From IMG/VR virus record IMGVR_UViG_3300038825_001787: DNA of 64,000 nucleotides, one strand, 5' to 3'. The notes under the pieces were generated by a model that was given only the letters and a program-made list of their open reading frames with translations, searched no databases and was not told the origin of the DNA. Of this stretch, positions 5,950 through 36,795 are shown in pieces; within the stretch, counting starts at the first letter, position 1, and each line of letters starts with the position of its first letter. The position numbers and the translations under genes were made by a program. Source of the stretch: an uncultured virus (IMG/VR IMGVR_UViG_3300038825_001787). Lineage: Duplodnaviria > Heunggongvirae > Uroviricota > Caudoviricetes.

Positions 5950-6246
5950 ATGGTCAGAGCAGTAGACATCAAATACAAACCACACGGAGTCCTTAAAGAC
6001 ATCATTGGTGGTAGACAAATGACACGCGGTAAAATAATGGCTGCATTGTGGAAAAAAATCGACAAAGCCGATTTGAAGGGTGTCGAAGGTGATACTGTCA
6101 AGTACAAAGGTAAGACCTACAAAGGTGGGCAAGTTATTCATGTTGGTGACGACCCAGATTTCAAAAAACTATGTGGTGGAAAGAAAAAGATAGCAATGTT
6201 TCAACTTTCTACATGCATAGGTAACTACATGGATCGAGTCAACTGA
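5950..6246 (+). CDS. SWIB/MDM2-domain protein
   Basis: LKDIIG..MTRGKIMAALWKKI...DPDFKKLCGG...MFQL resembles standalone SWIB proteins. Confidence 0.7.
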   Translation: MVRAVDIKYKPHGVLKDIIGGRQMTRGKIMAALWKKIDKADLKGVEGDTVKYKGKTYKGGQVIHVGDDPDFKKLCGGKKKIAMFQLSTCIGNYMDRVN

Positions 6247-13993: not shown

Positions 13994-14054
13994 TATCTGA
14001 CGCCATTGCACAATATATGCCTAAGTGGGTCTTATTCATAGGGAGGTTACTACA

Positions 14055-14615
14055 ATGAATATCTTTGTTCTTTCAACCGATCCTGTGGAAGCAGCAGTAA
14101 TGCAACTAGATCGCCATATCGTGAAAATGCCCTTAGAAACCGCACAAATGCTATGCGCTGCATATCCTGACGGTGTAGCACCGTACAAGAAAACACATTA
14201 CAATCATCCATCTACAGTATGGGCTAGAACTTGTAGAGAGAATCACGATTGGCTAATACGACATGGTCTTGCACTATGTATGGAATATACCAACCGCTAC
14301 GGGCGTAGGCATAAGTGTCAAGACGTTATTGAATGGGTCAGGGATAATCGCCCTAACCTACCCGTAAACGGAGAAATGACACCATTTGTAGCCGCTATAA
14401 GTGCTGACCAGAAGTGTAGGTCTTTCTATAACTTTGATAATCTACCTATAGTAACTAAGTATAGGTTATACTATCTATATGATAAGTCCTATATGGGTAT
14501 ATGGAATAAAGGTAAATCTAATCCTCCAGAATGGTACTCAGCATTGTTGCCTATAATACAAGACCCAGACGAATACGCTAGAAGTATCATGCAAACTGCT
14601 TGGTCGAGATGGTAA
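14055..14615 (+). CDS. pyrimidine-dimer DNA glycosylase-like protein (T4 endonuclease V family)
   Basis: MNIF..DP..AA....D.H.VKM.LE.AQML, H.NHP...W, Y..RY...H; GGAGG RBS. Confidence 0.8.
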   Translation: MNIFVLSTDPVEAAVMQLDRHIVKMPLETAQMLCAAYPDGVAPYKKTHYNHPSTVWARTCRENHDWLIRHGLALCMEYTNRYGRRHKCQDVIEWVRDNRPNLPVNGEMTPFVAAISADQKCRSFYNFDNLPIVTKYRLYYLYDKSYMGIWNKGKSNPPEWYSALLPIIQDPDEYARSIMQTAWSRW

Positions 14616-16024: not shown

Positions 16025-16771
16025 ATGAGAGCAGTCATCTATTCTAGAGTGTCTACTGACCATCAATCAGAAGGTTCTGTTGAACAGCAGATACGTAAGT
16101 GTAGAGAGTATTGTGCATTCAAAGACTACGAAGTCGTAGAAGTATACTCTGATGTGGGATCTGGTATGAAGACTCAGCGTGAAGGTTACGAAAAAATGAT
16201 GGATGACATAAACAACTGGGACATAGCAATTGCGTACAAACTAGATAGGTTTCACCGTAGCGCAGCAAACGCTGCTACATGGGCGGCGGATTTGAACGCT
16301 AGGAACAAAAACTTCGCAGCCATTGACATAGATATCGACACTGTTACACCTATGGGTAGATTTATTTTTCAGTTAATGAGTTCATTAGCGCAATTAGAAG
16401 TAGAAATGACCCGTGAAAGAACCAAAATGGGTCTAGATGCTGTTAAGCATCAAGGTAGAAAACTTGGCCCACCCCCATATGGATATGATTCTAAATACAA
16501 AATCACCGGAAAAGAAGATGATAAAGGTCTTTTAGTTGTTAATAGTGCAGAGGCAGAAATAGTGAAAATTATTTTCCAGTGCAAAGAAAAGGCTCTCAGT
16601 CTGTCTGAAATCTGTGAACATCTGATAGAAAGCGGAATAAAAACCAAGAAAGGTAAACTTAGTTGGTCGCCCGCTACTATTAGCGGTATACTAAAAAACG
16701 AACGCCTATACAAAGGCATATACGAATTAGATGGTGAAGAAAAAGAATTCTCTTGGGGAGGTATTTTATGA
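16025..16771 (+). CDS. serine recombinase (resolvase/invertase family)
   Basis: YSRVST catalytic motif, DVGSG, KLDRFHR, ERTKMGL, GPPPYGY. Confidence 0.92.
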   Translation: MRAVIYSRVSTDHQSEGSVEQQIRKCREYCAFKDYEVVEVYSDVGSGMKTQREGYEKMMDDINNWDIAIAYKLDRFHRSAANAATWAADLNARNKNFAAIDIDIDTVTPMGRFIFQLMSSLAQLEVEMTRERTKMGLDAVKHQGRKLGPPPYGYDSKYKITGKEDDKGLLVVNSAEAEIVKIIFQCKEKALSLSEICEHLIESGIKTKKGKLSWSPATISGILKNERLYKGIYELDGEEKEFSWGGIL

Positions 16772-21108: not shown

Positions 21109-23831
21109 TTATTAGTACAGGAATTAACGACGGTTGGCCATCAAATGAACTTAACCTACGGTGGAGAGAACAGAACGAAGTTGGACAGTGGATGCGTAAA
21201 GAAAAGGTAGTTACCGATTTTAAGCCGTATTTATTTGTTCATCCAAATCATACTAAGGTCAGAGCAGACAGAAACAAAGGTCTGAAAGAACGAAGACTTG
21301 ACAGGCACTCATTAGATACTTTCTTGACAGATAGGTATGACGTACAGTCTTTTGAGAAGGTCACAGATGCAGTTGCTGCAAACGGCGACCCACTATGGAA
21401 GGTTACTTTTGATTCTCCATCACGATTGAAGAAATTTGCACGAGAGGTTAGTGGTACTTACGAAGCAGATGTTCCATACGAAGATAGGTATCTCATAGAT
21501 ACCATGAATGAGTTACCCGAATATGAGCCTAGAAAAGTGTTTATAGATTTAGAGGCTTTACAATATAATCGTAAAAGTGGTGGGCCAAAAGAAATGAGAC
21601 AGAAAGGCGCGATATGGGCTGACAACCAAAGTATCAATGTAATAGGTTGTTATGATAACTATACTAACATATACACGATATGGACGCAGCACCCATTAGC
21701 ACATGAGCACTTACATAGTTTCTCACAAATAACACCTGTAAAAATGATGAAGTTTGACGGTATAGACGTAGAGATACGTCATTTCGCTAATGAGTATACT
21801 ATGATGCAAGACTTCGTAAAGTGGTTAGAGTTAATAGACCCAGATATGCTATTAGCATGGGGTATGGGGTTTTATGACTTACCTACACTGTATGCGCGAT
21901 TAGAGTCATTAGGTATCGGCGCTGACAAACTGTCGCCATCTTCACTAGGTAAGAACAGGCATGTTGATGAGCCGTCGAGGTGGGCTAAGGATAGATACAA
22001 CTGGACGAAGCAACCTATTAGAGGTCGCACGGTTATATCTTTAGACAGGTTATTCGAGCGCGTCTATCGTGATTCTAAGTCAACGAACCTCCCATCTAAC
22101 AAGTTAGACATAGTTGGGCAGAAATTATTTGGTAGAGGTAAAACTGATTTCAGACCAGATTTCTATGATAGTGATTACCACCTATTCCTAGAGGACTATC
22201 TATACTATAACTTTAGAGATGTATTACTAATGGTAGAGATAGAAGATAAGTATAACCTAGTTAATGGACAAATGGCATTGCAGCAATTGGCTAAGTGTCA
22301 GTTTAGTAGTACCTTCTATGGTTCTTCTTACGCTAGAGTATATTTCATGCGAAAGGCCAGTTTCAAACAGAGAAGCGGTTATTATGCGTCAAAGACCGAC
22401 AAGGGAACAGACGACATGGCATTGCAAGGTGCTATTGTTTTAGACCCCGAAGATTTGGATTCCGTTGGTTTGCATAAGAACGTAGCAATCCTAGATTTCG
22501 CAGGTCTATATCCATCGTGCATGATTGCCGCTAATTGTTCATTTGAGACAAAAGTAGCGAAAGGAGAAGAACAGGAAGATGATATCATTGGTGACGGTTG
22601 TAGGTTTAGACGTAGCCCAATTGGTATTCTACCCGCTTCTGTGTTGGAGTTAGACGAGTTAAGAGACGAATACAAGGCTAAGAGAGATGAAGCCGGTGCA
22701 GAGCATGGTAAGACCTCTAATGAGTTTAGGAAGTGGGATGACGCACAAAAGACTGTCAAGAGGCTCAGAGCCACATTTTACGGTTTGATGGCCTTCAAAG
22801 GCTACTCTTGGGGCGATATAGATATTGCAAGAACAATCACTAAGTTTGGTAGGGATTCTTTGAACGCCATTATGGTTGAGTCTAACAAACTAGGTTATCC
22901 TGTGATTTATGGTCATACTGATTCTATCTTCGTAAAGATGGGTGATGACCTATCAACCGAAGAGTGTGTACAAAAGGCACAGGAACTTGGTACACATTTG
23001 ACAGAGATGATGCAAACTAAGTTACAGTCAAAGGCTATGATTGTTGATTGTGAGATGCTGATGGATAGATTCTACTTACCGAGGCGGAATCGCTACGGTG
23101 GAAGGGTAGTTTGGATGCCAGAGGTCGGTTTTAGTATCTCTAACGAGGCTGTAGAGGACAGAATGAAGATACAGGGGTTGGAGGCCAAGCACGCAAATAC
23201 GTCGCCTGTAGGACGTGGTATTCAACTAAAAGCACTACATATGCTATGGGATGACCATACACCTGAGGAAGTTAAGGCATCTTTGTTAGAATATATTGCA
23301 AACATACGAGACGGTAATGTCAAAACCACGGATTTGATATCTAGGGCTAGGTTGGGTAAATGGTTACCAAACCGAAAAGCCATGCGACAAGTAGCGAACA
23401 GTAAAGATACCGAAGAAAAGATACAACTTGCTCTCAAAAATGTGTCATGGCATTATGCTGATGGTGCTACTAATGACAATACTTCTGTTGACTCTGATGG
23501 AGACGATGCTTGCTATGCTAATTTGTCTGGAGATGCTCGTGGTGCTGCTTGGCATAACATAGTTTTGGCTAATGAAGAATACGATACACTCGACAAAGGT
23601 GATTCATTTTATACTACGTTTGTGAAGGATGGGCCTACTTGGATTCCAGAAGGTGGCTACGTTTCATTCCATGACCTTGAGCAAATATCTGACTACGAAA
23701 TTGATGTGGAGTTAATTATCGAGAAGTTTGTTGTTGGTAAATTAGACCACATAATGTATGGTATGGGAATGTCGTTAGATGACCTTCGTGTTCCTGACCG
23801 TAAGTTTACGGTGGATGAGTTTTTTGACTGA
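21105..23831 (+). CDS. polB: family B DNA polymerase
   Basis: Exo I DLE, Exo II FYDLP, DFAGLYPS, KRLRATFYG, YGHTDS. Confidence 0.97.
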   Translation: MIISTGINDGWPSNELNLRWREQNEVGQWMRKEKVVTDFKPYLFVHPNHTKVRADRNKGLKERRLDRHSLDTFLTDRYDVQSFEKVTDAVAANGDPLWKVTFDSPSRLKKFAREVSGTYEADVPYEDRYLIDTMNELPEYEPRKVFIDLEALQYNRKSGGPKEMRQKGAIWADNQSINVIGCYDNYTNIYTIWTQHPLAHEHLHSFSQITPVKMMKFDGIDVEIRHFANEYTMMQDFVKWLELIDPDMLLAWGMGFYDLPTLYARLESLGIGADKLSPSSLGKNRHVDEPSRWAKDRYNWTKQPIRGRTVISLDRLFERVYRDSKSTNLPSNKLDIVGQKLFGRGKTDFRPDFYDSDYHLFLEDYLYYNFRDVLLMVEIEDKYNLVNGQMALQQLAKCQFSSTFYGSSYARVYFMRKASFKQRSGYYASKTDKGTDDMALQGAIVLDPEDLDSVGLHKNVAILDFAGLYPSCMIAANCSFETKVAKGEEQEDDIIGDGCRFRRSPIGILPASVLELDELRDEYKAKRDEAGAEHGKTSNEFRKWDDAQKTVKRLRATFYGLMAFKGYSWGDIDIARTITKFGRDSLNAIMVESNKLGYPVIYGHTDSIFVKMGDDLSTEECVQKAQELGTHLTEMMQTKLQSKAMIVDCEMLMDRFYLPRRNRYGGRVVWMPEVGFSISNEAVEDRMKIQGLEAKHANTSPVGRGIQLKALHMLWDDHTPEEVKASLLEYIANIRDGNVKTTDLISRARLGKWLPNRKAMRQVANSKDTEEKIQLALKNVSWHYADGATNDNTSVDSDGDDACYANLSGDARGAAWHNIVLANEEYDTLDKGDSFYTTFVKDGPTWIPEGGYVSFHDLEQISDYEIDVELIIEKFVVGKLDHIMYGMGMSLDDLRVPDRKFTVDEFFD

Positions 23832-24121: not shown

Positions 24122-27100
24122 CTACTCAGGAGCAAAATCACCGATTTTAGGTGTGGCACCTACGACAATTGATTCAGTAACGCCTCTAATCGGGTCTTCG
24201 TTACCCATTATGGCACCACCAAGTATTTGCTCTTTAATACGTTGGATTGAAACTCCACCCATTACACTAGGGTTGTCGCTCCCTCCCATTCCGGTAGGTG
24301 ACAGTGATTTGATATATCCATATTCTCCCATACAATCTACTATAGTACGTATATATCTATTATCATAATCCCCTATACCTTTAGTAGTAAGATTCATTTG
24401 GAAATCTAATTCTTCATACAAATTATATATTGCTGCTTCCAACCCAAAATTCTTTTCTATCCATTGGTGATTATTCGTTTCTAATAATGATAAGTCCAAC
24501 ATTCCAGAAAATTCTTTTACTGTGTTGAGAAGAGAATTGCTTGCTGCTTTGATAATCAATTTCCATCTTTCTTTTTCTTCATCTCTTTCCAAGACAATAT
24601 TGTCCAAGCCTGCTATGCCGTTAAAGTTGGAATTAACAATCAGTTCTTTAGCATACAGAAGTGCTGCATCACTAACGTAGTTTGGTAACCCCTCTTCTAT
24701 TTTGTAGCCTACAGGCATAATTTGTATGACAAATGGTAATTCTGGTGCTATTCTACCCTTTATTATCTGAAACTTAAACAAATTACCATTACTTCCTTTA
24801 CTTAACGCTGTTTTTATCTGATTTAGTGCTATGTCTGGAGGTATTTGATACGTTCCCATTGCATCAAAATCAAACTTAACTTGGACCAATTTGTTTTCTA
24901 GGTCATAAGAAACCAATTTTATTATCTGCTTGCCTTTGACTTCTGCTAGTAAAGTTTGTACTCTCTTTGCATCTGATTCCGTTGCATTTTCTGGAAGGTA
25001 TAATTTAGTCAAAGGCCCTTTTATCTTTCCTTCGCTGTATTCTAATATCTGACTCAATCTGGCAATATCCGCTTTGACCCCTGCTTTACCTGCGAAGTGG
25101 AAGGTTCTCAGAGCAGCCTGTGTTGCAGGCTCTCCTATGTCTGCCCCAGCAGTTGCACCGATTGCCTCACCTACACGACACAAACTATCTTCAAAGTAAT
25201 CAGTCAGCCTACTTCCTAGTTTCTTTAGATTCGGTTTAGTTACTTCTCTTATCATTAGTTTCTTTGTAACCAATGCCATTGTGTTTTGTGAGACTATTTT
25301 ACCGACACTTTTAGCCAAAGTAGCAATATCTGAGCCTTTGCTACAGTAAATGCAATCGTCTTCTAGGGTTAAACCATGTTTACAAGCATGGTCATAGAAG
25401 AATGGTTGTAGCGTGATTGTGTAACCACGCCTGTTGGTCTGATCGGTATTACCTCTAATGTGGTAAGGAGCCAACCCATCATCACCTACTACTGGAGAAA
25501 TCACTCTTTTGGTACGTAAGTTGACGACTTGTCTACGCTGATTGACTACACAGGACTCTAAAGCCTTAATCATTTTACGCTCTAAGTAGCCAGATTTAGC
25601 AATATTTCCTTGAGCAGACTCTACTGTCGAACGCCTTCCTGCGATAGAAGTCATAAAATACTCATCTGGCTCCATCCCTCTAGAATAGTTACCTCTAATG
25701 AAACCCCTGTGTCGCGGGTCTAAACTATTTTTTGGGTAGTGTGGAAGTACCCTTCTTGCTTGAATACCAGCAGTAACCCTCAACTCAGCCAATCTAACTT
25801 GCCCAAACGCACCAGCCATTTGTTGGATGTTCATTGGTTTTCCTCTTGCTTTAGACCTAACAGCGATTTGCATAGCGTTGCCGCTACCCTGATAGTCTTC
25901 TATTGCGTCTAACATCTCTTTTTCAAACTGGTCTGTGAAGCCTAGTATCTCATCTTCGATGAAAGACAATGGGTCTGCGAGTGCTTCTATTGCCTTTTCG
26001 GGTCTGTTGTTTGCTACATACTCTTTCAATCTACCATTGGCGAACGCAGTATCTATTTTTAGTATCTTATTAGCACAGTTTTCGTATAATCTATCAATCT
26101 TTGAACTTACTGGTACTGCGGAAACGTCTGCAGTTCCCATAGTATATCCTATTAGGTGGTGTGCTGCGAAACCAAGTCTGGTAGCCATTTCGATAAATTC
26201 TACTAACTTTTCTTGCCCTTTGTCGTACCCTTCGTGATAAATGAATGATGGAGCGATTGACGCACCACCTTCGCCAAATGCTGACTTTTCTAAAGTACCA
26301 GAAACTAGTTTACCGTTTCTTATAACTACCTTTTCTTTAATTGGTTTGCCGTTTTCGCGTTTTACTACAACAGACCCATCTTCTAGTATTTCAGTTTCTG
26401 GTGTTATTCCTGGGAAACTTGCAGAAACGTACTCTGCATCTAGTACCGTAAAAAGGTGATTAAACAAAGCCCTTCCACTATAACCCGGTCCATTGGGTGT
26501 CATTTCATCGGACTCAGGTAGCGAGTCTATTGTACGATACGTCTTACCTTCTTTCCCGTCTCTTATTTCGCTAAATACAGTAGAATAGCACTCGATGGCT
26601 GCCTTTTTAGACACATATGGTCTACCTTCGGCATTAAATCCTAGTCCAACAGACGCATCCCAAGTGTTAATCCTTTCTTTATCTGTATAAGTCAGCAAGT
26701 AAAGTCCGGAAGTCTGGTCTTGATCGGTAGCAACTGTCAACATTCCGTACCTAGAATGAATAATGTTCTTTGTCAAAGATAATAATTTAATGGCTTCTTT
26801 CTTCGCTGCCTCAGATTGTACGAAGTGTGCCTTCATCGCATCTCCATCGTAGTCAGCATTAAATGGAATACAAACCGTAGGGTTCATGCTGAGGCTTTTT
26901 GTTGGAACAATTCTTGACCTAAATGCCATTATTGACTGTCTGTGCAGAGACGGTGCGCGGTTAAATAAGCATATATCACCATCCATTATGTTCCTTTTGA
27001 TTACCTTGCCGGGTTGTAAGTTGTCCATCACTCTAGTTAGATGCTCAACTGGTTGTTTAGAATTTATTTTATCGGGCGCTGGGTGGTTGGGGTAGTCGTA

Positions 27101-28804
27101 TATGTATGTTATTTTAGGGTGTTTGTCGTCAATGACATTTTGTATGTAACTTTTAAGTCGAACTATGTTTTCGTTAGTTACTGTTTCAGGATAAGATATC
27201 TCTTGCGCCATAACTATTGGGACTCCGACTTCGTCTATTGCTAAATTTGGGTCTGGGCTAATTGCAGAATAACCAACGTTGTTTACGTACTTAGACTGCA
27301 GGTTGTTCCTAAACCTACCCTTTTTACCTTCTAATCTGTTTAATACACCTTTCAAAGATTCGTTTTGAACACCGCCGCCATAGGTGAATGTTTGGCGTGT
27401 GCCGCCCGAACCAATTGTTTGATTGGTATTGTCAATTAACCTAGATACCGAAAATAACAACATTTTTCTTGCGTAATTTCTACTTCCAGATCGCCTTCCA
27501 GCATTTATTCTCTCCCGTACTATGTTCGCATCGCTTACTATTGCTGAATATAATTTAGTTAAGTCATCAACATCAGTCCTACCATCGCTTCTTTGTCTCA
27601 ATGGTCTAGAAGCATTGGGTATAACAGGTAATGACTCGAAAAACATATGCTCTGGTCTAGAAGTAATTGGGTTTAATGCCATAAAATAGCAATCGCTATC
27701 TGGGATATCGGATAGTATATCTCTAACAGCGATAAAGTCCAGTTTTCTAACACCATCTGCTCTAGGTGTAACATAAGAAAACTCTGCAGAATTAAAGTAG
27801 AACTCAATTTTTGGTGTTACCTCATTGCAATGTGGACAAACTCTACCTGTCTTATTCATTTCATTAAAAAACGGACCCATCATGCTTCGTACTCTTCTTC
27901 TGGATGCAATATTCTTACCACCGATATCAAACTCTTGCATTACTCTTGGTCGCTGACTTTCTAACAAGTCATTACGCAACATAACCCTGCTGCAACTATG
28001 ACACGTCTTGTTTAACACGTCTAATAACGGTAAATCTGGCTTGCCTTTGTTCTTGGATGCACCTAAGAACAAGATGTTTGGTATAGGAATTGGCAGTCTA
28101 ATGTAACCAAAATGACCTGAACAAGATTTCGTAGCGTCGTTGACTTGTGGGTCGAAAGCCAGGTTGCAAGTTGGACAGTCTTCTTCCTTAGCCAAAGAGC
28201 CCATTCTCGGATCCATTGTTCCACCTATGACCGGTACGACCCCATTGGTGTCTTCTCTGATTGCTTCTCCAGTAATTATTTCAATCACAGCAAGTTTTTC
28301 GACCTCTTCTGGTGACATTAATTCCATGTTTACCGCAGCAACCTCCCCAGGTGTTCTTAGGTCAATTCTGTCATTTTTATAATTGGTATAAAATGCAATA
28401 GGTAAGTCTTCACTAGCCTTGCCTTTCATTATTTTTTCTTTAATTGGTACTTCTAAAACCATACCCTCTAGTCCATCAGGTATCATTTTAGGGTATTTTT
28501 CAGACTTGTCTGTTAGGTCGTAAGATGTTTCTATTTTCACAAGAAAGTAAATGTCAGATGCTGCTCTAAGTCCAGCAGCGTCTTCGTGTGTTAATAGGTA
28601 TCTTTTTGCCTCCCCTGCGTATCTTGGAACCCATTTATGCTTTAGCCTACCGTTATTTAAGTCAAAATCTATAAAATCTTTTGTTGCTGTAAAAGTCGTA
28701 CCCTCTTCTCTGGTAGAAGGTAGTTCAATCTCTTCTGAATAGATGTCTTCTGGTTTGACAAACCAAATAAAAGACCGTATCCCAACCGCTTCTGGTTCTT
28801 CCAT
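24122..28804 (-). CDS. DNA-directed RNA polymerase largest subunit, fused A'+A'' (Rpo1/Rpb1-like)
   Basis: DPRMG, CSGHFG, GKKGRFR, FNRAPSLH, NADYDGD, SGYLERKMIK, IGEPATQAALRTFHFAG, GVTESIVVG. Confidence 0.97.
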   Translation of the reverse strand: MEEPEAVGIRSFIWFVKPEDIYSEEIELPSTREEGTTFTATKDFIDFDLNNGRLKHKWVPRYAGEAKRYLLTHEDAAGLRAASDIYFLVKIETSYDLTDKSEKYPKMIPDGLEGMVLEVPIKEKIMKGKASEDLPIAFYTNYKNDRIDLRTPGEVAAVNMELMSPEEVEKLAVIEIITGEAIREDTNGVVPVIGGTMDPRMGSLAKEEDCPTCNLAFDPQVNDATKSCSGHFGYIRLPIPIPNILFLGASKNKGKPDLPLLDVLNKTCHSCSRVMLRNDLLESQRPRVMQEFDIGGKNIASRRRVRSMMGPFFNEMNKTGRVCPHCNEVTPKIEFYFNSAEFSYVTPRADGVRKLDFIAVRDILSDIPDSDCYFMALNPITSRPEHMFFESLPVIPNASRPLRQRSDGRTDVDDLTKLYSAIVSDANIVRERINAGRRSGSRNYARKMLLFSVSRLIDNTNQTIGSGGTRQTFTYGGGVQNESLKGVLNRLEGKKGRFRNNLQSKYVNNVGYSAISPDPNLAIDEVGVPIVMAQEISYPETVTNENIVRLKSYIQNVIDDKHPKITYIYDYPNHPAPDKINSKQPVEHLTRVMDNLQPGKVIKRNIMDGDICLFNRAPSLHRQSIMAFRSRIVPTKSLSMNPTVCIPFNADYDGDAMKAHFVQSEAAKKEAIKLLSLTKNIIHSRYGMLTVATDQDQTSGLYLLTYTDKERINTWDASVGLGFNAEGRPYVSKKAAIECYSTVFSEIRDGKEGKTYRTIDSLPESDEMTPNGPGYSGRALFNHLFTVLDAEYVSASFPGITPETEILEDGSVVVKRENGKPIKEKVVIRNGKLVSGTLEKSAFGEGGASIAPSFIYHEGYDKGQEKLVEFIEMATRLGFAAHHLIGYTMGTADVSAVPVSSKIDRLYENCANKILKIDTAFANGRLKEYVANNRPEKAIEALADPLSFIEDEILGFTDQFEKEMLDAIEDYQGSGNAMQIAVRSKARGKPMNIQQMAGAFGQVRLAELRVTAGIQARRVLPHYPKNSLDPRHRGFIRGNYSRGMEPDEYFMTSIAGRRSTVESAQGNIAKSGYLERKMIKALESCVVNQRRQVVNLRTKRVISPVVGDDGLAPYHIRGNTDQTNRRGYTITLQPFFYDHACKHGLTLEDDCIYCSKGSDIATLAKSVGKIVSQNTMALVTKKLMIREVTKPNLKKLGSRLTDYFEDSLCRVGEAIGATAGADIGEPATQAALRTFHFAGKAGVKADIARLSQILEYSEGKIKGPLTKLYLPENATESDAKRVQTLLAEVKGKQIIKLVSYDLENKLVQVKFDFDAMGTYQIPPDIALNQIKTALSKGSNGNLFKFQIIKGRIAPELPFVIQIMPVGYKIEEGLPNYVSDAALLYAKELIVNSNFNGIAGLDNIVLERDEEKERWKLIIKAASNSLLNTVKEFSGMLDLSLLETNNHQWIEKNFGLEAAIYNLYEELDFQMNLTTKGIGDYDNRYIRTIVDCMGEYGYIKSLSPTGMGGSDNPSVMGGVSIQRIKEQILGGAIMGNEDPIRGVTESIVVGATPKIGDFAPE

Positions 28805-30240: not shown

Positions 30241-30813
30241 TCAATCCTCCCAAGGAATGTCATCCCACTCGGTACTGTCTTCGTCGAAGAAGTCGTCATC
30301 CCAGTCGTCTGTATCGTCGGCCTCAATATCTGCAGGCTCTTCTGTGTCGGTTTCGGTAGAATCTCCCACGTCAGAATCGGTAGGTGTATCGGCATCGTCC
30401 TCAACTTCCTCGTCAGCCGGAAGGGGTTCTGGTACTTCTGCTTCACTATCATCTTCAACGTCATCTTCGGGTTCTTCCTCTTCAACCTCATCTTCTGGTT
30501 CTTCGTCTTCTGGTTCTTCATCTTCCGATTCTTCATCTTCATCTAATGAATCCCAATCTAAATCTTCCCAATCGTCTTCCCAGTCGTCTTCTTCGGGCAT
30601 TACTAAGTCTGGAGTTTTCTTCTTAGTAGCATTTTCTTTGGGTTCTTCTGGTTCGTCGTCAACAGAAACTAGTTCTCCTAACTCTACCAAGTCTATTTTA
30701 TCGTTCTTTTTCTGGTCTAATGCAGAAAGAAATGAGTCTAATTTGTTATCGGCGCTTTCTTCGTGCATTGCTTCTATTGATAGGGTCATCGTGACTTCGT
30801 ACAGTTTCATCAA
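30241..30813 (-). CDS. extremely acidic protein
   Basis: D/E-dominated C-terminal ~120 aa punctuated by Trp. Confidence 0.7.
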   Translation of the reverse strand: MMKLYEVTMTLSIEAMHEESADNKLDSFLSALDQKKNDKIDLVELGELVSVDDEPEEPKENATKKKTPDLVMPEEDDWEDDWEDLDWDSLDEDEESEDEEPEDEEPEDEVEEEEPEDDVEDDSEAEVPEPLPADEEVEDDADTPTDSDVGDSTETDTEEPADIEADDTDDWDDDFFDEDSTEWDDIPWED

Positions 30814-31086: not shown

Positions 31087-31530
31087 ATGACAAAGAAAAC
31101 CCTAGCCTGTCCATGTTGCAAAATCGGAACCCTAAGTAGCAAATCTGCTTGGAACTTACATATGAAAATAATGCATCCATCTTATAATTTGGCTGCAAAG
31201 CCAACTTTAGGAAGAAGATACCAACGTATCGTGAGTCATATAGAAAAATGTTTGATACACTATCGTCAAAAGAATATTGAAGTTGTTAGTCAGTCTGAGA
31301 TTTCAAACTGGCTCAAAGATAACACAAAAGGTGGAATGGCCAAAAAGCGTGTCTCTAGTCTGTTACAAAGACGCCCACAGTTTGTCCTTCATAAGAAGGC
31401 AAGAAGAATCAACTCTAATCAAATTGAATCTTGGTGGTCTTTGGGAGATGTGGATGCAACAGCAGACTTTCGTGGATATGAAAAATGGATAGATGTAGAG
31501 ACAAATCTGCCTTTAGTTAATAAAAAGTAA
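31087..31530 (+). CDS. C2H2-like Zn finger plus winged-helix-like protein
   Basis: CPCC...H....H followed by a helical basic domain. Confidence 0.55.
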   Translation: MTKKTLACPCCKIGTLSSKSAWNLHMKIMHPSYNLAAKPTLGRRYQRIVSHIEKCLIHYRQKNIEVVSQSEISNWLKDNTKGGMAKKRVSSLLQRRPQFVLHKKARRINSNQIESWWSLGDVDATADFRGYEKWIDVETNLPLVNKK

Positions 31531-31531
31531 G

Positions 31532-31570
31532 ATACCGGTATCGGTTCCGACGTTATAATAATGTAAGGAG
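31532..31570 (+). promoter_or_regulatory. repeated promoter-like element, copy 1
   Basis: Palindrome ATACCGGTAT plus ACGTTATAATAATGTAAGGAG; three copies in the window. Confidence 0.7.
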
Positions 31571-31609
31571 AGAACTCCTTCTTACACAACCAAAAGGAGA
31601 CTAAGATAA

Positions 31610-31777: not shown

Positions 31778-31857
31778 GACGACCGCACCTACTAAAGCGG
31801 ACATAAAGCCACTAGGGGATTACTCCTAGATGGCTACCCGTAAGAGATTATTGTAAC

Positions 31858-31896
31858 ATACCGGTATCGGTTATGACGTTATAATAATGTAAGGAG
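31858..31896 (+). promoter_or_regulatory. repeated promoter-like element, copy 2
   Basis: Near-identical to copy 1; precedes the structured RNA. Confidence 0.7.
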
Positions 31897-31916
31897 GGAA
31901 AGCACCCTCTTTAACA

Positions 31917-32339
31917 GATAAAAGGCATTTTTTAGATGCCGCAGCCTTCACAGGCTGCAACTCACGTTCGCTGCTTCGGCGGCATTTACTTCGGGCTTCG
32001 GCCTGGTTCGTGAGATTCCGTAGTGGGTGTCAAAACCCACTACAAAAACTCTATCATCCCGTATGATTCGAGTTAAAATAAGGCCAAGAGCAGCAAAAGC
32101 CCGTAAGGGGGGATGGACGGTGCAGAAATGTACAGTTGAACTGCGATTAGCAATTTAAGTTTAAAAACAGAACTTCGAGTACCTTCCTTTTGGAAGTGAA
32201 CTTATACGCATTGTCATTAACGACCTGACCGCTTCAAGGCGAAGGACGGACTTTGTGAGGAACCTCGAGGAGTGTCTTATTTTAGCATTTGAGATGAATA
32301 CATTTGTAGGCTGACGCACCTAACCCAAACGCGTTAATA
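31917..32339 (+). ncRNA. structured RNA containing a circularly permuted RNase P-like catalytic domain (32074-32284)
   Basis: CR-V-like ACAGAA-CTTCGAGT precedes CR-I-like GAGGAACCTCGAGG, and the two pair as a P4-like helix; P1-, P2-, P5/7- and P15-like helices; upstream UUCG hairpins. Confidence 0.6.
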
Positions 32340-32347
32340 GAGATACT

Positions 32348-32638
32348 ATGAGTAATTTAAAATTAATTCGTAAAGTAAAAACAAGAGAAGAACTGATGAA
32401 CGCATTAGTGACAGGAGACAAAGTAATTATTGTTCCGAACTACCCTAACCAACAGATGACTGGAACTATCCAGTCAGTAGAAAGGGAAGACGGATCAGGC
32501 TACAGTTTCAATGTCGTAATATATGTAAGGAACAGGCAATTGGAAAAAACAGAATGGCAAGGAGTAACATATACTCCTAGCCATATATTAAAAACTGTTT
32601 ACATCAGATTCCCAAGTCGAACAAGACTTGGTGCATAA
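32348..32638 (+). CDS. hypothetical protein
   Basis: ORF following an AATAG junction. Confidence 0.6.
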   Translation: MSNLKLIRKVKTREELMNALVTGDKVIIVPNYPNQQMTGTIQSVEREDGSGYSFNVVIYVRNRQLEKTEWQGVTYTPSHILKTVYIRFPSRTRLGA

Positions 32639-32956
32639 ACTCCGGGTGAGACCGATAAAAACTCGATAGGGCCGTTACTAAGAAACAACGGATATTTCAA
32701 CACAAGCACACGCGCCGTCTCGATGAATTCGGTAGTTGTTAAGAGCGGTGTTGATAATAGATTAGGAAGGACTGAATTACCTAAGTGCGCAATAGGTATC
32801 GATCCTTCCGTTTGCGAAGTCGTAATAGACGAGGAGCAGATGAAACTGGATGCATATTATAACATCATAACCGATGAAATAAGCATTAGTACACCAACAT
32901 TCAGATAAGCGTGTATTAACGGTAACGGCGGGTAAAACCGTTCGTAATAGATTACC

Positions 32957-33235: not shown

Positions 33236-33301
33236 GGGTCTCCGCTTGGGCGCGATAAAAACCCAATAGGCTTTACACACCTAAACCATAAATGTGTTAA
33301 C

Positions 33302-33433
33302 AGATAGATTATCTTTCCTTTATTGGGAAGACGATTTATCCGGATATCTTTCCGGATAAACGCTTTGAGTCTCGAACTGGATTTATTCAGCGAAGGATTC
33401 ATTGAGATGGGACTACCAATCCTATCAGATAGA
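33302..33433 (+). ncRNA. duplicated structured non-coding element, copy 1
   Basis: ~132-nt near-identical copy at 36664-36795 with pairing-preserving changes. Confidence 0.6.
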
Positions 33434-33785
33434 TATTAGATGCTATTGTTATAGTATCATTTTGAGAGAGGAAAAACAAAAAACCGCTTTGGAGGTGCAA
33501 AACACCTACCCCGGCGGTTTCTCTATGACCGAATAGGACTTACAGATTTTGTCTCTGTAAGACTGACGATACCATAACATGACAGATGTTGGGACCAGCC
33601 GCATAAGATCGGCCCCCTGTTCCGGATAGGAATTACACATCTACATCTTAGGCGAGTGGGAAATTCAGCAATGCAAGTTGAATCTACTGCTCATGGAAGG
33701 GCTTGATTAATTTCAAGTTGGGAAGAAACAAAGAGAAAGGCGTCACGGTGTAACAACTGTGGCGTCTTTTTTTTAATAGATTCAC

Positions 33786-36289: not shown

Positions 36290-36607
36290 AACCATAACGC
36301 TGCTTAGGGACATCTCTAAGTGAGCCGTTATTAGAATGTATATAGGAAATGAAAAAACATTAAGGGATATAAGAACGACTGATGGAACGACTGATATTGT
36401 ACTATCAGCAGTCACCGCATGGCAGATGATACCATATAACATCAATCCGAAGATTAAAAATTTACAAATCTTCCTGCAAGGTGATACCATATTTACAGTG
36501 GACGCAAGCCAATCATTGGCTGTACTTAATCATCTACGCACCCACATAGGATAAGCGATATCCCGCTACTAGACAGAGTTATACCGGTATTGAAGGCATA
36601 CTGCCAT

Positions 36608-36646
36608 ATACCGGTATAAAATGAAACGTTATAATAATGTAAGGAG
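36608..36646 (+). promoter_or_regulatory. repeated promoter-like element, copy 3 (extra ATACCGGTAT at 36581)
   Basis: Same palindrome and ACGTTATAATAATGTAAGGAG. Confidence 0.7.
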
Positions 36647-36663
36647 AAGATGCCTTACAGAAT

Positions 36664-36795
36664 AGATAGATTATCTTTCCTTTATTGGGAAGACGATTTA
36701 TCCGGATATCTTTCCGGATAGACGCTTTGGGTCTCGAACTGGATTTATTCAGTGAAGGATTTATTGAGATAAGACTACCAATCTTATCAGATAGA
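36664..36795 (+). ncRNA. duplicated structured non-coding element, copy 2
   Basis: Near-identical to 33302-33433. Confidence 0.6.

Follow-up and report, generated by a model that had tools for sequence, protein, structure and literature searches.

A family of virus-encoded structured RNAs resembling a circularly permuted RNase P catalytic core

Ribonuclease P (RNase P) is the ribozyme that trims new tRNAs, and its RNA belongs to the few ribozymes that are common to all domains of life. Here we describe an element of 211 nucleotides (nt) that resembles the catalytic domain (C-domain) of RNase P RNA in circularly permuted order. It lies at positions 32074-32284 on the plus strand of a 64,000-nt stretch of DNA from an uncultured virus (IMG/VR record IMGVR_UViG_3300038825_001787; Duplodnaviria, Heunggongvirae, Uroviricota, Caudoviricetes), hereafter called the window, and was first proposed as a candidate ribozyme in a preliminary description made from the window alone. 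In the portions of PMC6565675 and PMC4919922 on which we rely, the conserved regions (CR) CR-I, CR-IV and CR-V constitute the catalytic pseudoknot, and the bulged U of helix P4 is universally conserved and needed for catalysis. The same portion of PMC6565675 places an "A anchor" between P5 and P15 and, in eukaryal RNAs, a stem called P19 between P2 and P4. The minimal, type P RNase P RNA of Pyrobaculum misses nearly the whole specificity domain (S-domain), as stated in the part of PMC4919922 cited here, and the C-domain of E. coli alone cleaves substrates according to the excerpted text of PMC5839562. Circularly permuted tRNA genes, as presented in the excerpts of PMC3978253, show that a functional RNA can be encoded with its halves swapped. 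In the open-access full-text literature we found no description of a natural circularly permuted RNase P RNA, nor of a virus-encoded RNase P RNA.

Our results favor the view that the viral RNA is a permuted RNase P catalytic core, and we consider this probable. Compared with archaeal RNase P RNA (RF00373), the viral RNA appears to have the same elements with the same adjacencies: P5, a short linker containing A, P15, AG...AU, the 3' strand of P2, ACAGAA, a P4 strand, UA(C), P1, the 5' strand of P2, P3, GAGGAA and the other P4 strand. The differences are that the viral order is rotated, that P1 is a capped hairpin or missing, that no S-domain (P7-P12, CR-II/III) is recognised, that P15 bears two small hairpins in place of the P15-P16 loop, that CR-IV is two letters shorter, that the bulged U of P4 is not fixed, and that the Rfam model gives no score. 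The core blocks of bacterial type A RNase P RNA (RF00010), namely GAGGAAAGUCCGGgC, AGAugAAUG and ACAGAACCCGGCUUA, likewise correspond to the viral blocks. The consensus strings published for the conserved regions accord with this comparison, although we do not count them as evidence. With the Pyrobaculum RNA, which the preliminary description had called type T, the viral RNA has in common that essentially only the C-domain is present, as far as the cited part of PMC4919922 describes it; that RNA, however, is cellular, has the native order and open P1 ends, and is likened here by description, not by sequence. The C-domain-only RNAs of E. coli are laboratory constructs, not natural genes. Permuted tRNA genes, in the excerpts cited, are restored through a circular intermediate, whereas in the viral fold the old ends are closed by a loop and re-ligation is not suggested.

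The motifs and helices claimed in the preliminary description were all found where it had placed them. The element opens with the 5' strand of the closing helix (32074-32084), equivalent to the 3' strand of P5, and ends with its partner (32274-32284), equivalent to the 5' strand of P5; the two form 11 bp, ten of them Watson-Crick and one G-U. The linker CAAGA (32085-32089), similar to J5/15, is 3-6 nt long and always contains A in all members of the family. In Rfam the corresponding consensus reads GgaG-CAA-ggcc for bacteria and GGaG-CAAG-ucc for archaea. A P15-like helix (32090-32144), formed by GCAG (32090-32093) and CTGC (32141-32144), encloses a GNRA hairpin (32100-32109) and a GAAA hairpin (32117-32136). 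The CR-IV-like AGCAAU (32149-32154, within TTAGCAAT at 32147-32154) stands immediately 5' of the P2 3' strand, UAAGUU (32156-32161), and is followed by J2/4 and the CR-V-like block (32162-32181), which comprises ACAGAA, a 7-nt P4 strand and UA, with ACAGAACTTCGAGT at 32167-32180. A predicted P1-like cap hairpin, CUUCC-UUUU-GGAAG (32183-32196), precedes the P2 5' strand, AACUUA (32199-32204), which pairs with 32156-32161. Next comes a long, irregular P3-like hairpin (32207-32257) that terminates at the first G of GAGGAA, and then the CR-I-like block GAGGAACCTCGAGG (32257-32270), made up of GAGGAA and the second P4 strand. P4 itself joins 32173-32180 to 32262-32270, either by seven contiguous pairs or by eight pairs and one bulged C.

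In general form, the viral order is closing helix, 3-6 nt linker, P15-like helix, AG..AU, P2 3' strand, 2-5 nt or a hairpin, ACAGAA, 7-nt P4 strand, UA(C), cap or short linker, P2 5' strand, P3, G.GGAA, P4 strand and closing helix. This is the order of the RNase P C-domain read from the 3' strand of P5 through a closed P1 to the 5' strand of P5. The claim that CR-V comes before CR-I was confirmed: CR-IV and CR-V lie 76-109 nt 5' of CR-I in all members, so that the native RNase P order is not kept. The adjacency rules are the same as in RNase P, insofar as the cited portions of the literature describe them, with CR-IV adjoining P2, P3 adjoining GAGGAA, and an optional hairpin at the position of P19.

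Eighteen loci carry the RNA (the window, L121-L127, L130, L132, L135-L138, L140, L143, L145 and L286), the copy in L138 being cut by the contig end. All 18 lie upstream of a gene for a fused archaeal-type A'+A'' RNA polymerase subunit and on the opposite strand, that is, divergently, at a distance of 2.4-4.7 kb from the polymerase start. The polymerases of these loci are 30-59% identical to that of the window. A search with nhmmer located a homologue at the same place, upstream and on the other strand, in two contigs of IMG/VR with a polymerase of 33% identity, and further relatives from IMG/VR, metagenomes and genome bins were recruited via polymerase alignments. Four members (L125, L126, L143 and L145) were first found by a regular expression for the CR-V motif, though at the expected syntenic place. 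Seven loci with a viral-type polymerase (L131, L133, L134, L139, L141, L142 and L144) do not show the RNA, and in these the available upstream DNA measures just 17-2852 nt. None of the 60 loci with a cellular-like polymerase (L146-L205) has it.

Sequence conservation in this family is concentrated on the letters of the RNase P core. In a MAFFT alignment of 14 sequences, AG..AU, ACAGAA, G, UA and G.GGAA account for 17 of the 22 invariant columns and match the RNase P consensus, and the letters in the helices vary freely. No change is seen in ACAGAA, in the G at block position 11 or in UA in any of 16 sequences. The A, G, A and U of the CR-IV-like block are invariant both in 14 and in 15 aligned sequences, and adjoin P2 in all members; the only departure from an invariant G.GGAA is an insertion of one base in L132. 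The letters that had been equated with CR-I, CR-IV and CR-V are thus those that are invariant across the family.

A duplex search carried out on each sequence separately returned one architecture, built from differing sequences, in every member. P4 occurs in 8 distinct strand-pair versions, P2 in 12 and the closing helix in 11, and P2 and P4 cross to form a pseudoknot in every member. The P3-like hairpin adjoins the first G of G.GGAA throughout. Some parts are optional: L130, L132 and clade B have an extra hairpin between P2 and ACAGAA, and the cap hairpin after UAC is present, with differing sequences, in 8 of 15 members (window, L124, L127, L140, L125, L143, L126 and L145). The capped P1 that had been pointed out in the window therefore exists there but is dispensable, since the other seven members examined (L130, L132, L135, L136, L137, L121 and L123) are without it. 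When strands were exchanged between clades, cognate partners paired better than foreign ones in P4 (-9.3 versus -4.4 kcal/mol; 18 of 144 swaps as good), in P2 (-7.3 versus -4.2 kcal/mol; 14 of 144) and in the closing helix (-15.6 versus -7.9 kcal/mol; 6 of 144).

Covariation was scored on alignments made with two models, R1 and R2. For the nested fold aligned with R1, 84.8% of the cells are paired, compared with 62.9% in shuffles, and 39 of 49 pairs show changes on both sides, a number reached by none of 500 shuffles. The covariation score is 0.570, against 0.225 for shuffled alignments and 0.06-0.15 for slid partners. Changes on both sides are seen in 10 of 10 pairs of the closing helix (92.5% of cells paired), in 6 of 6 pairs of the GAAA hairpin (86.5%), in 5 of 7 pairs of P2 (95.2%) and in 2 of 3 pairs of the P15-like helix (64%). 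With R2, in which P4 is the outer helix, they are seen in 6 of 8 pairs of the P3 outer stem (93.5%) and in 6 of 8 pairs of P4 (95.3%). P4 was counted with R2, on 8 distinct sequences, because R1 puts ACAGAA in insert columns for the members with an extra hairpin; R2 is itself weak on clade B (E 0.26 and 0.37) and misses L124, L140, L143 and L145. The two P4 pairs that never vary are the U-A pair adjoining GGAA and the G-C pair at block position 11, and E. coli and archaeal (L287) RNase P form both of them with the equivalent letters. The MAFFT alignments and the swap test are free of the bias that comes from fitting to a structure. Because G-U pairs fix the strand, the transcribed strand is the plus strand of the window.

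An RNA family with a conserved fold is therefore real, and the proposal of a virus-encoded structured RNA is supported by both its conservation and its fold. The preliminary description had called for covariation of P4 and P2 in homologues, and both helices covary; compensatory changes in the relatives maintain each of the predicted helices, i.e. the P5-like closing helix, the P15-like helix, P2, the capped P1, P3 and P4. In addition, the non-coding interval 31880-32345 of the window folds with a z-score of -4.5, which none of 100 shuffles equals.

The likeness to RNase P was also examined in the other direction, on a comparison set of E. coli rnpB and four archaeal RNase P genes (L287-L290, from Nitrososphaeria, Bathyarchaeota and Acidianus). 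A profile of the viral CR-V block ranked the true CR-V first in five of five RNase P loci, out of 23,116 positions, with scores of 15.7, 14.5, 7.8 and 16.0 bits in the archaea and 4.7 bits in E. coli. The closest look-alikes among the RNase P genes compared were archaeal, from Nitrososphaeria and Acidianus. The viral L135 group and the RNase P gene of Nitrososphaeria (L287) have the 10-mer GAGGAAGCUC in common, and their CR-V blocks differ in 3 of 17 letters.

Several observations weigh against descent from RNase P or against retained RNase P function. The CR-I profile ranked the true CR-I first in only one of the five RNase P loci. The best matches of the family hidden Markov model in the same loci fell on the true CR-V without being significant (E 0.21 and 2.1), and profile-sequence similarity is restricted to short blocks. 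The covariance-model signal that the permuted ribozyme was expected to give is lacking when Rfam is run on the complete region or on single halves: at E<=10 the Rfam RNase P models matched neither the region, nor the halves of the window element, nor one half of the L135 element, nor the contig of one relative. Halves were scanned separately to permit a truncated match, as a stand-in for the re-permuted sequence. The R1 and R2 alignments lean towards structure because they are fitted to models. At the level of single motifs, the CR-IV-like block has 6 letters instead of the 8 of the Rfam consensus AGAugAAU/AGucGAAU, and the U of P4 that was taken to be conserved is not fixed across the family. 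In the window group a C is either bulged or part of a C.A mismatch. In the L121 group there is no bulge, or else a U is bulged in combination with a G.G mismatch, and clade B has bulges or mismatches involving A or G. A one-base bulge of C or U two pairs into P4 can be drawn in all members of clade A, where alternative registers also exist. Word searches covering 420 nt upstream and 330 nt downstream revealed no CR-II/III-like words common to the family, and no RNase P protein family was recognised among the 85 open reading frames (ORFs) of the window. Finally, tRNA genes are scarce, with a tRNA-Lys in the window and in L130, a tRNA-Arg in L143, and none in 12 other loci scanned. The word GAAAGUGCC in the 5' domain of clade B, which looks like the bacterial CR-II consensus, is missing from clade A and was judged to be due to chance.

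How often such a pattern would arise by chance in a single sequence was estimated with a loose descriptor (AC..AA, 7 nt and TA; a downstream G.GGAA; a P4 of at least 6 bp; AG..AT; and a P2 of at least 6 bp). It gave 8 matches in 200 Markov resamples of the window, i.e. 0.04 per 64-kb window, and one false match in the window itself, at 23749; the single-sequence pattern is for these reasons only weakly beyond chance. Of the 4227 Rfam families searched against the region, none matched the RNA, and only the tRNA was found. By eye, neither a K-turn in P3 nor a bulge-helix-bulge motif in the closing stem was found.

It could be argued that there is no functional RNA here at all, and that chance complementarity or a small coding region has been mistaken for one. 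Two short ORFs (32027-32158, plus strand; 32161-32319, minus strand) do overlap the element, and the pattern in the window taken by itself is weak, but given its presence in 18 loci with compensatory changes, strand-specific G-U pairs, hairpin insertions and deletions that would break the frames, and the z-score of -4.5, this explanation is exceedingly improbable. A more substantial alternative is a virus-specific structured leader or non-coding RNA that is unrelated to RNase P, acts in cis as a regulator or as a partner of the polymerase, and has come to look like RNase P by convergence or coincidence. The location of the RNA fits this, as it heads a polycistronic unit, immediately follows a promoter-like element and has no terminator visible before the next ORF; so does the lack of any covariance-model or significant profile signal. 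The shortened CR-IV, the variable bulge, a P15 region without a recognisable L15 and the frequency at which the short motifs alone arise by chance are also compatible with it. What makes it doubtful in our opinion is that about 18 invariant letters agree with the RNase P core in identity, in order and in position relative to six helices, that the viral CR-V profile singles out the true CR-V in all five RNase P loci, and that the adjacency rules are identical, with no Rfam family offering another match. We know of no other RNA class with such a combination of letters, order and helices.

If the RNA does derive from RNase P, it might still not cut. It could instead act as a decoy or scaffold for RNase P proteins of the host, such as Pop5-Rpp30, the proteins that hold CR-IV and P2-P3, and thereby divert them to viral RNA or damp the maturation of host tRNAs. 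The structural evidence serves this explanation as well as it serves a permuted, cleaving core, and the P4 bulge, a requirement of catalysis in the cited portions of PMC6565675 and PMC4919922, varies or may be absent. The lack of S-domain motifs and the near absence of tRNA genes point in the same direction, and the high contig depth in one RNA library (see below) would, as a weak hint, fit an abundant and stable RNA. We nevertheless regard a non-cutting role as unlikely, since the active-site letters (ACAGAA, GGAA and the U-A and G-C pairs) are invariant across clades whose polymerases are only 30-37% identical, a constraint that exceeds what protein binding alone usually demands. An RNase P-type endonuclease is the most likely single activity, although we would place it somewhat short of an even chance. 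The combined proposal, a permuted RNase P C-domain that has lost its S-domain and still acts as an RNase P-type endonuclease on viral transcripts, seems to us about equally likely to be right or wrong.

Descent from RNase P, catalysis, protein partners and substrates are what we infer from these comparisons, and the following scenario should be read in that light. A tandem duplication of an RNase P gene followed by the loss of both outer ends would produce the rotated order, and the same event would also remove the S-domain. The 211-nt element would make up the 3' domain of a non-coding viral RNA some 450 nt long that is transcribed from the repeated promoter-like element, and its core would cut viral transcripts, probably with the help of host proteins. 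Candidate substrates are the precursor of the co-transcribed tRNA-Lys and/or structured operon junctions consisting of a hairpin and the motif A[AC]UAGA; the preliminary description had named ACUA|G junctions as putative substrates. Given the scarcity of tRNA genes in these viruses, the need for an enzyme devoted to tRNA processing is not obvious. The more specific version, in which the RNase P RNA of a host was captured, rotated and relieved of its tRNA-reading half, and the core now serves as an mRNA-processing ribozyme that cuts the hairpin-A[AC]UAGA junctions between the operon genes, its own release from the transcript head included, is in our judgement quite unlikely.

If the RNA is indeed a permuted RNase P core, the catalytic core can be rotated and lose its S-domain in nature, and viruses whose transcription genes are archaeal in type possess their own RNA enzymes. 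Annotation by models would then miss such genes on purely topological grounds, so that more of them may be hidden. A naturally minimised core of about 200 nt would be of use for structural and mechanistic work, and would provide a handle on the processing of polycistronic transcripts in these viruses. Should junction cutting also be true, nature would have derived from RNase P an enzyme with a new class of substrates, as with RNase MRP in eukaryotes.

The preliminary description had placed the RNA just downstream of a repeated promoter and had the S-domain absent. A promoter-like repeat is present in three copies in the window (31527-31574, 31853-31900 and 36603-36650), but about 180 nt of conserved structured RNA (31888-32073) intervene between it and the core. 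This stretch consists of a 5' hairpin (31888-31916) and a 5' domain of stacked hairpins according to the predicted fold, and its hairpins are retained with different sequence in L130 and L132. Thus the absence of an S-domain holds insofar as CR-II/III motifs are lacking, and fails insofar as a conserved domain of about 180 nt precedes the core. In the copy next to the RNA (31853-31900, plus strand), the palindrome ATACCGGTAT at 31858-31867 is followed by TATAAT at 31880-31885, then by AATG and the start of the 5' hairpin. The same layout, with a 10-bp palindrome (GGGTATCGATACCC in L123), a TATAAT-like box about 12-20 nt further on, AATG and a 5' hairpin, is found upstream of the RNA in L123, L124, L125, L126, L127, L130 and L132. 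This unit may be the early promoter of the family combined with an operator for a dimeric factor, and a transcription start at it is predicted from the sequence.

Many start codons are preceded, at a distance of 0-20 nt, by the motif A[AC]UAGA, frequently with a hairpin in front of the motif. Positions of the motif in the window include 32336, 32946, 33775, 34028, 34394, 34488, 34634, 35692, 42814, 43519 and 47354, among others. The first copy 3' of the RNA, AAUAGAG (32336-32342, plus strand), stands 5 nt upstream of the start codon of the next ORF (32348-32638), and other copies flank the tRNA-Lys, 6 nt before and 9 nt after it. A related motif, [ACU]UAGA, follows the RNA within about 25-60 nt in L121, L123, L124, L130 and L132. 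The motif could be a processing site, a promoter for the viral polymerase, or a translation signal. The tRNA-Lys, the only tRNA gene of the window, is on the same strand as the RNA and downstream of it, and so is the tRNA-Lys of L130.

Positions 31917-32332 are covered by contigs in all four RNA libraries compared, which come from three studies. In one of these, three contigs over 31917-32208 have depths of 151-237, compared with 14.8 for the contig of the next ORF, i.e. roughly tenfold higher. The depth of contigs measures expression poorly, RNA libraries may contain DNA, and stretches free of contigs are uninformative; we take these data as a weak hint that the RNA is expressed. Contig ends near 32040 in three RNA runs were considered as a possible end of the RNA and rejected, as they coincide with a sequence variant instead. 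A contig of one RNA run joins 32303 to 32640 and skips the 96-aa ORF 32348-32638, and some strains seem to be without this ORF.

A second gene-poor, structured stretch lies further downstream at 33290-33780. Within it, 33436-33660 folds with a z-score of -3.6, and a G+C-rich hairpin followed by nine T (33738-33776) ends the stretch. In one RNA library, contigs reach a depth of 261 over 33439-33655. A repeat at 33299-33433 is 94% identical to 36661-36795, the second copy standing directly after the third copy of the promoter-like repeat. This stretch is possibly another viral non-coding RNA.

An exact 35-nt search of IMG/VR gave no match, and neither the family B DNA polymerase nor ORF 32348-32638, used as baits in IMG/VR, retrieved relatives; blastn of the region against GenBank phages likewise gave no match. 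A short degenerate DNA pattern produced more than 118 matches in IMG/VR that were mostly due to chance, among which L088 alone was real, and identical to L001.

The window is part of a large virus-like genome that is mostly without annotatable genes, and no convincing gene is found at 31780-32345. The largest RNA polymerase subunit is encoded as a single 1560-aa fusion of archaeal-type A' and A'' (24122-28804, minus strand), which matches the NCBIfam A' model at E 1.3e-152 versus 7e-64 for bacterial beta', and which belongs to a family found in at least 23 further virus-like loci. A second large polymerase subunit was not recognised in the window with Pfam, NCBIfam or PHROGs. The other genes include a family B DNA polymerase, a PriS-type primase, a CdvC/CDC48-like ATPase and two RNase H genes. 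Genes for replication and transcription are of archaeal type, and among cellular polymerases those of TACK archaea come nearest, at 26-34% identity. A contig of 100,964 bp (L206/L286) from a relative of the virus, with a polymerase 37% identical and with the RNA present (E 1e-44), sits inside a bin labelled Flavobacteriales; this may be a hint to the host, at odds with the archaeal-type genes, or the result of faulty binning. Seawater data sets commonly contain the virus, the full stretch being present in 14 DNA runs from 6 studies.

Elsewhere in the window, a serine recombinase with Resolvase and Recombinase domains (E 6e-36) is encoded at 16025-16771, a pyrimidine-dimer glycosylase-like protein at 14025-14615, and a small protein with a match to the SWIB/MDM2 domain at 5950-6246, all on the plus strand. 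At 30464-30660, a unit of 15-17 nt (TCTTCTGGTTCTTC...) is repeated five times within overlapping ORFs of both strands, and probably encodes an acidic or serine-rich repetitive protein segment.

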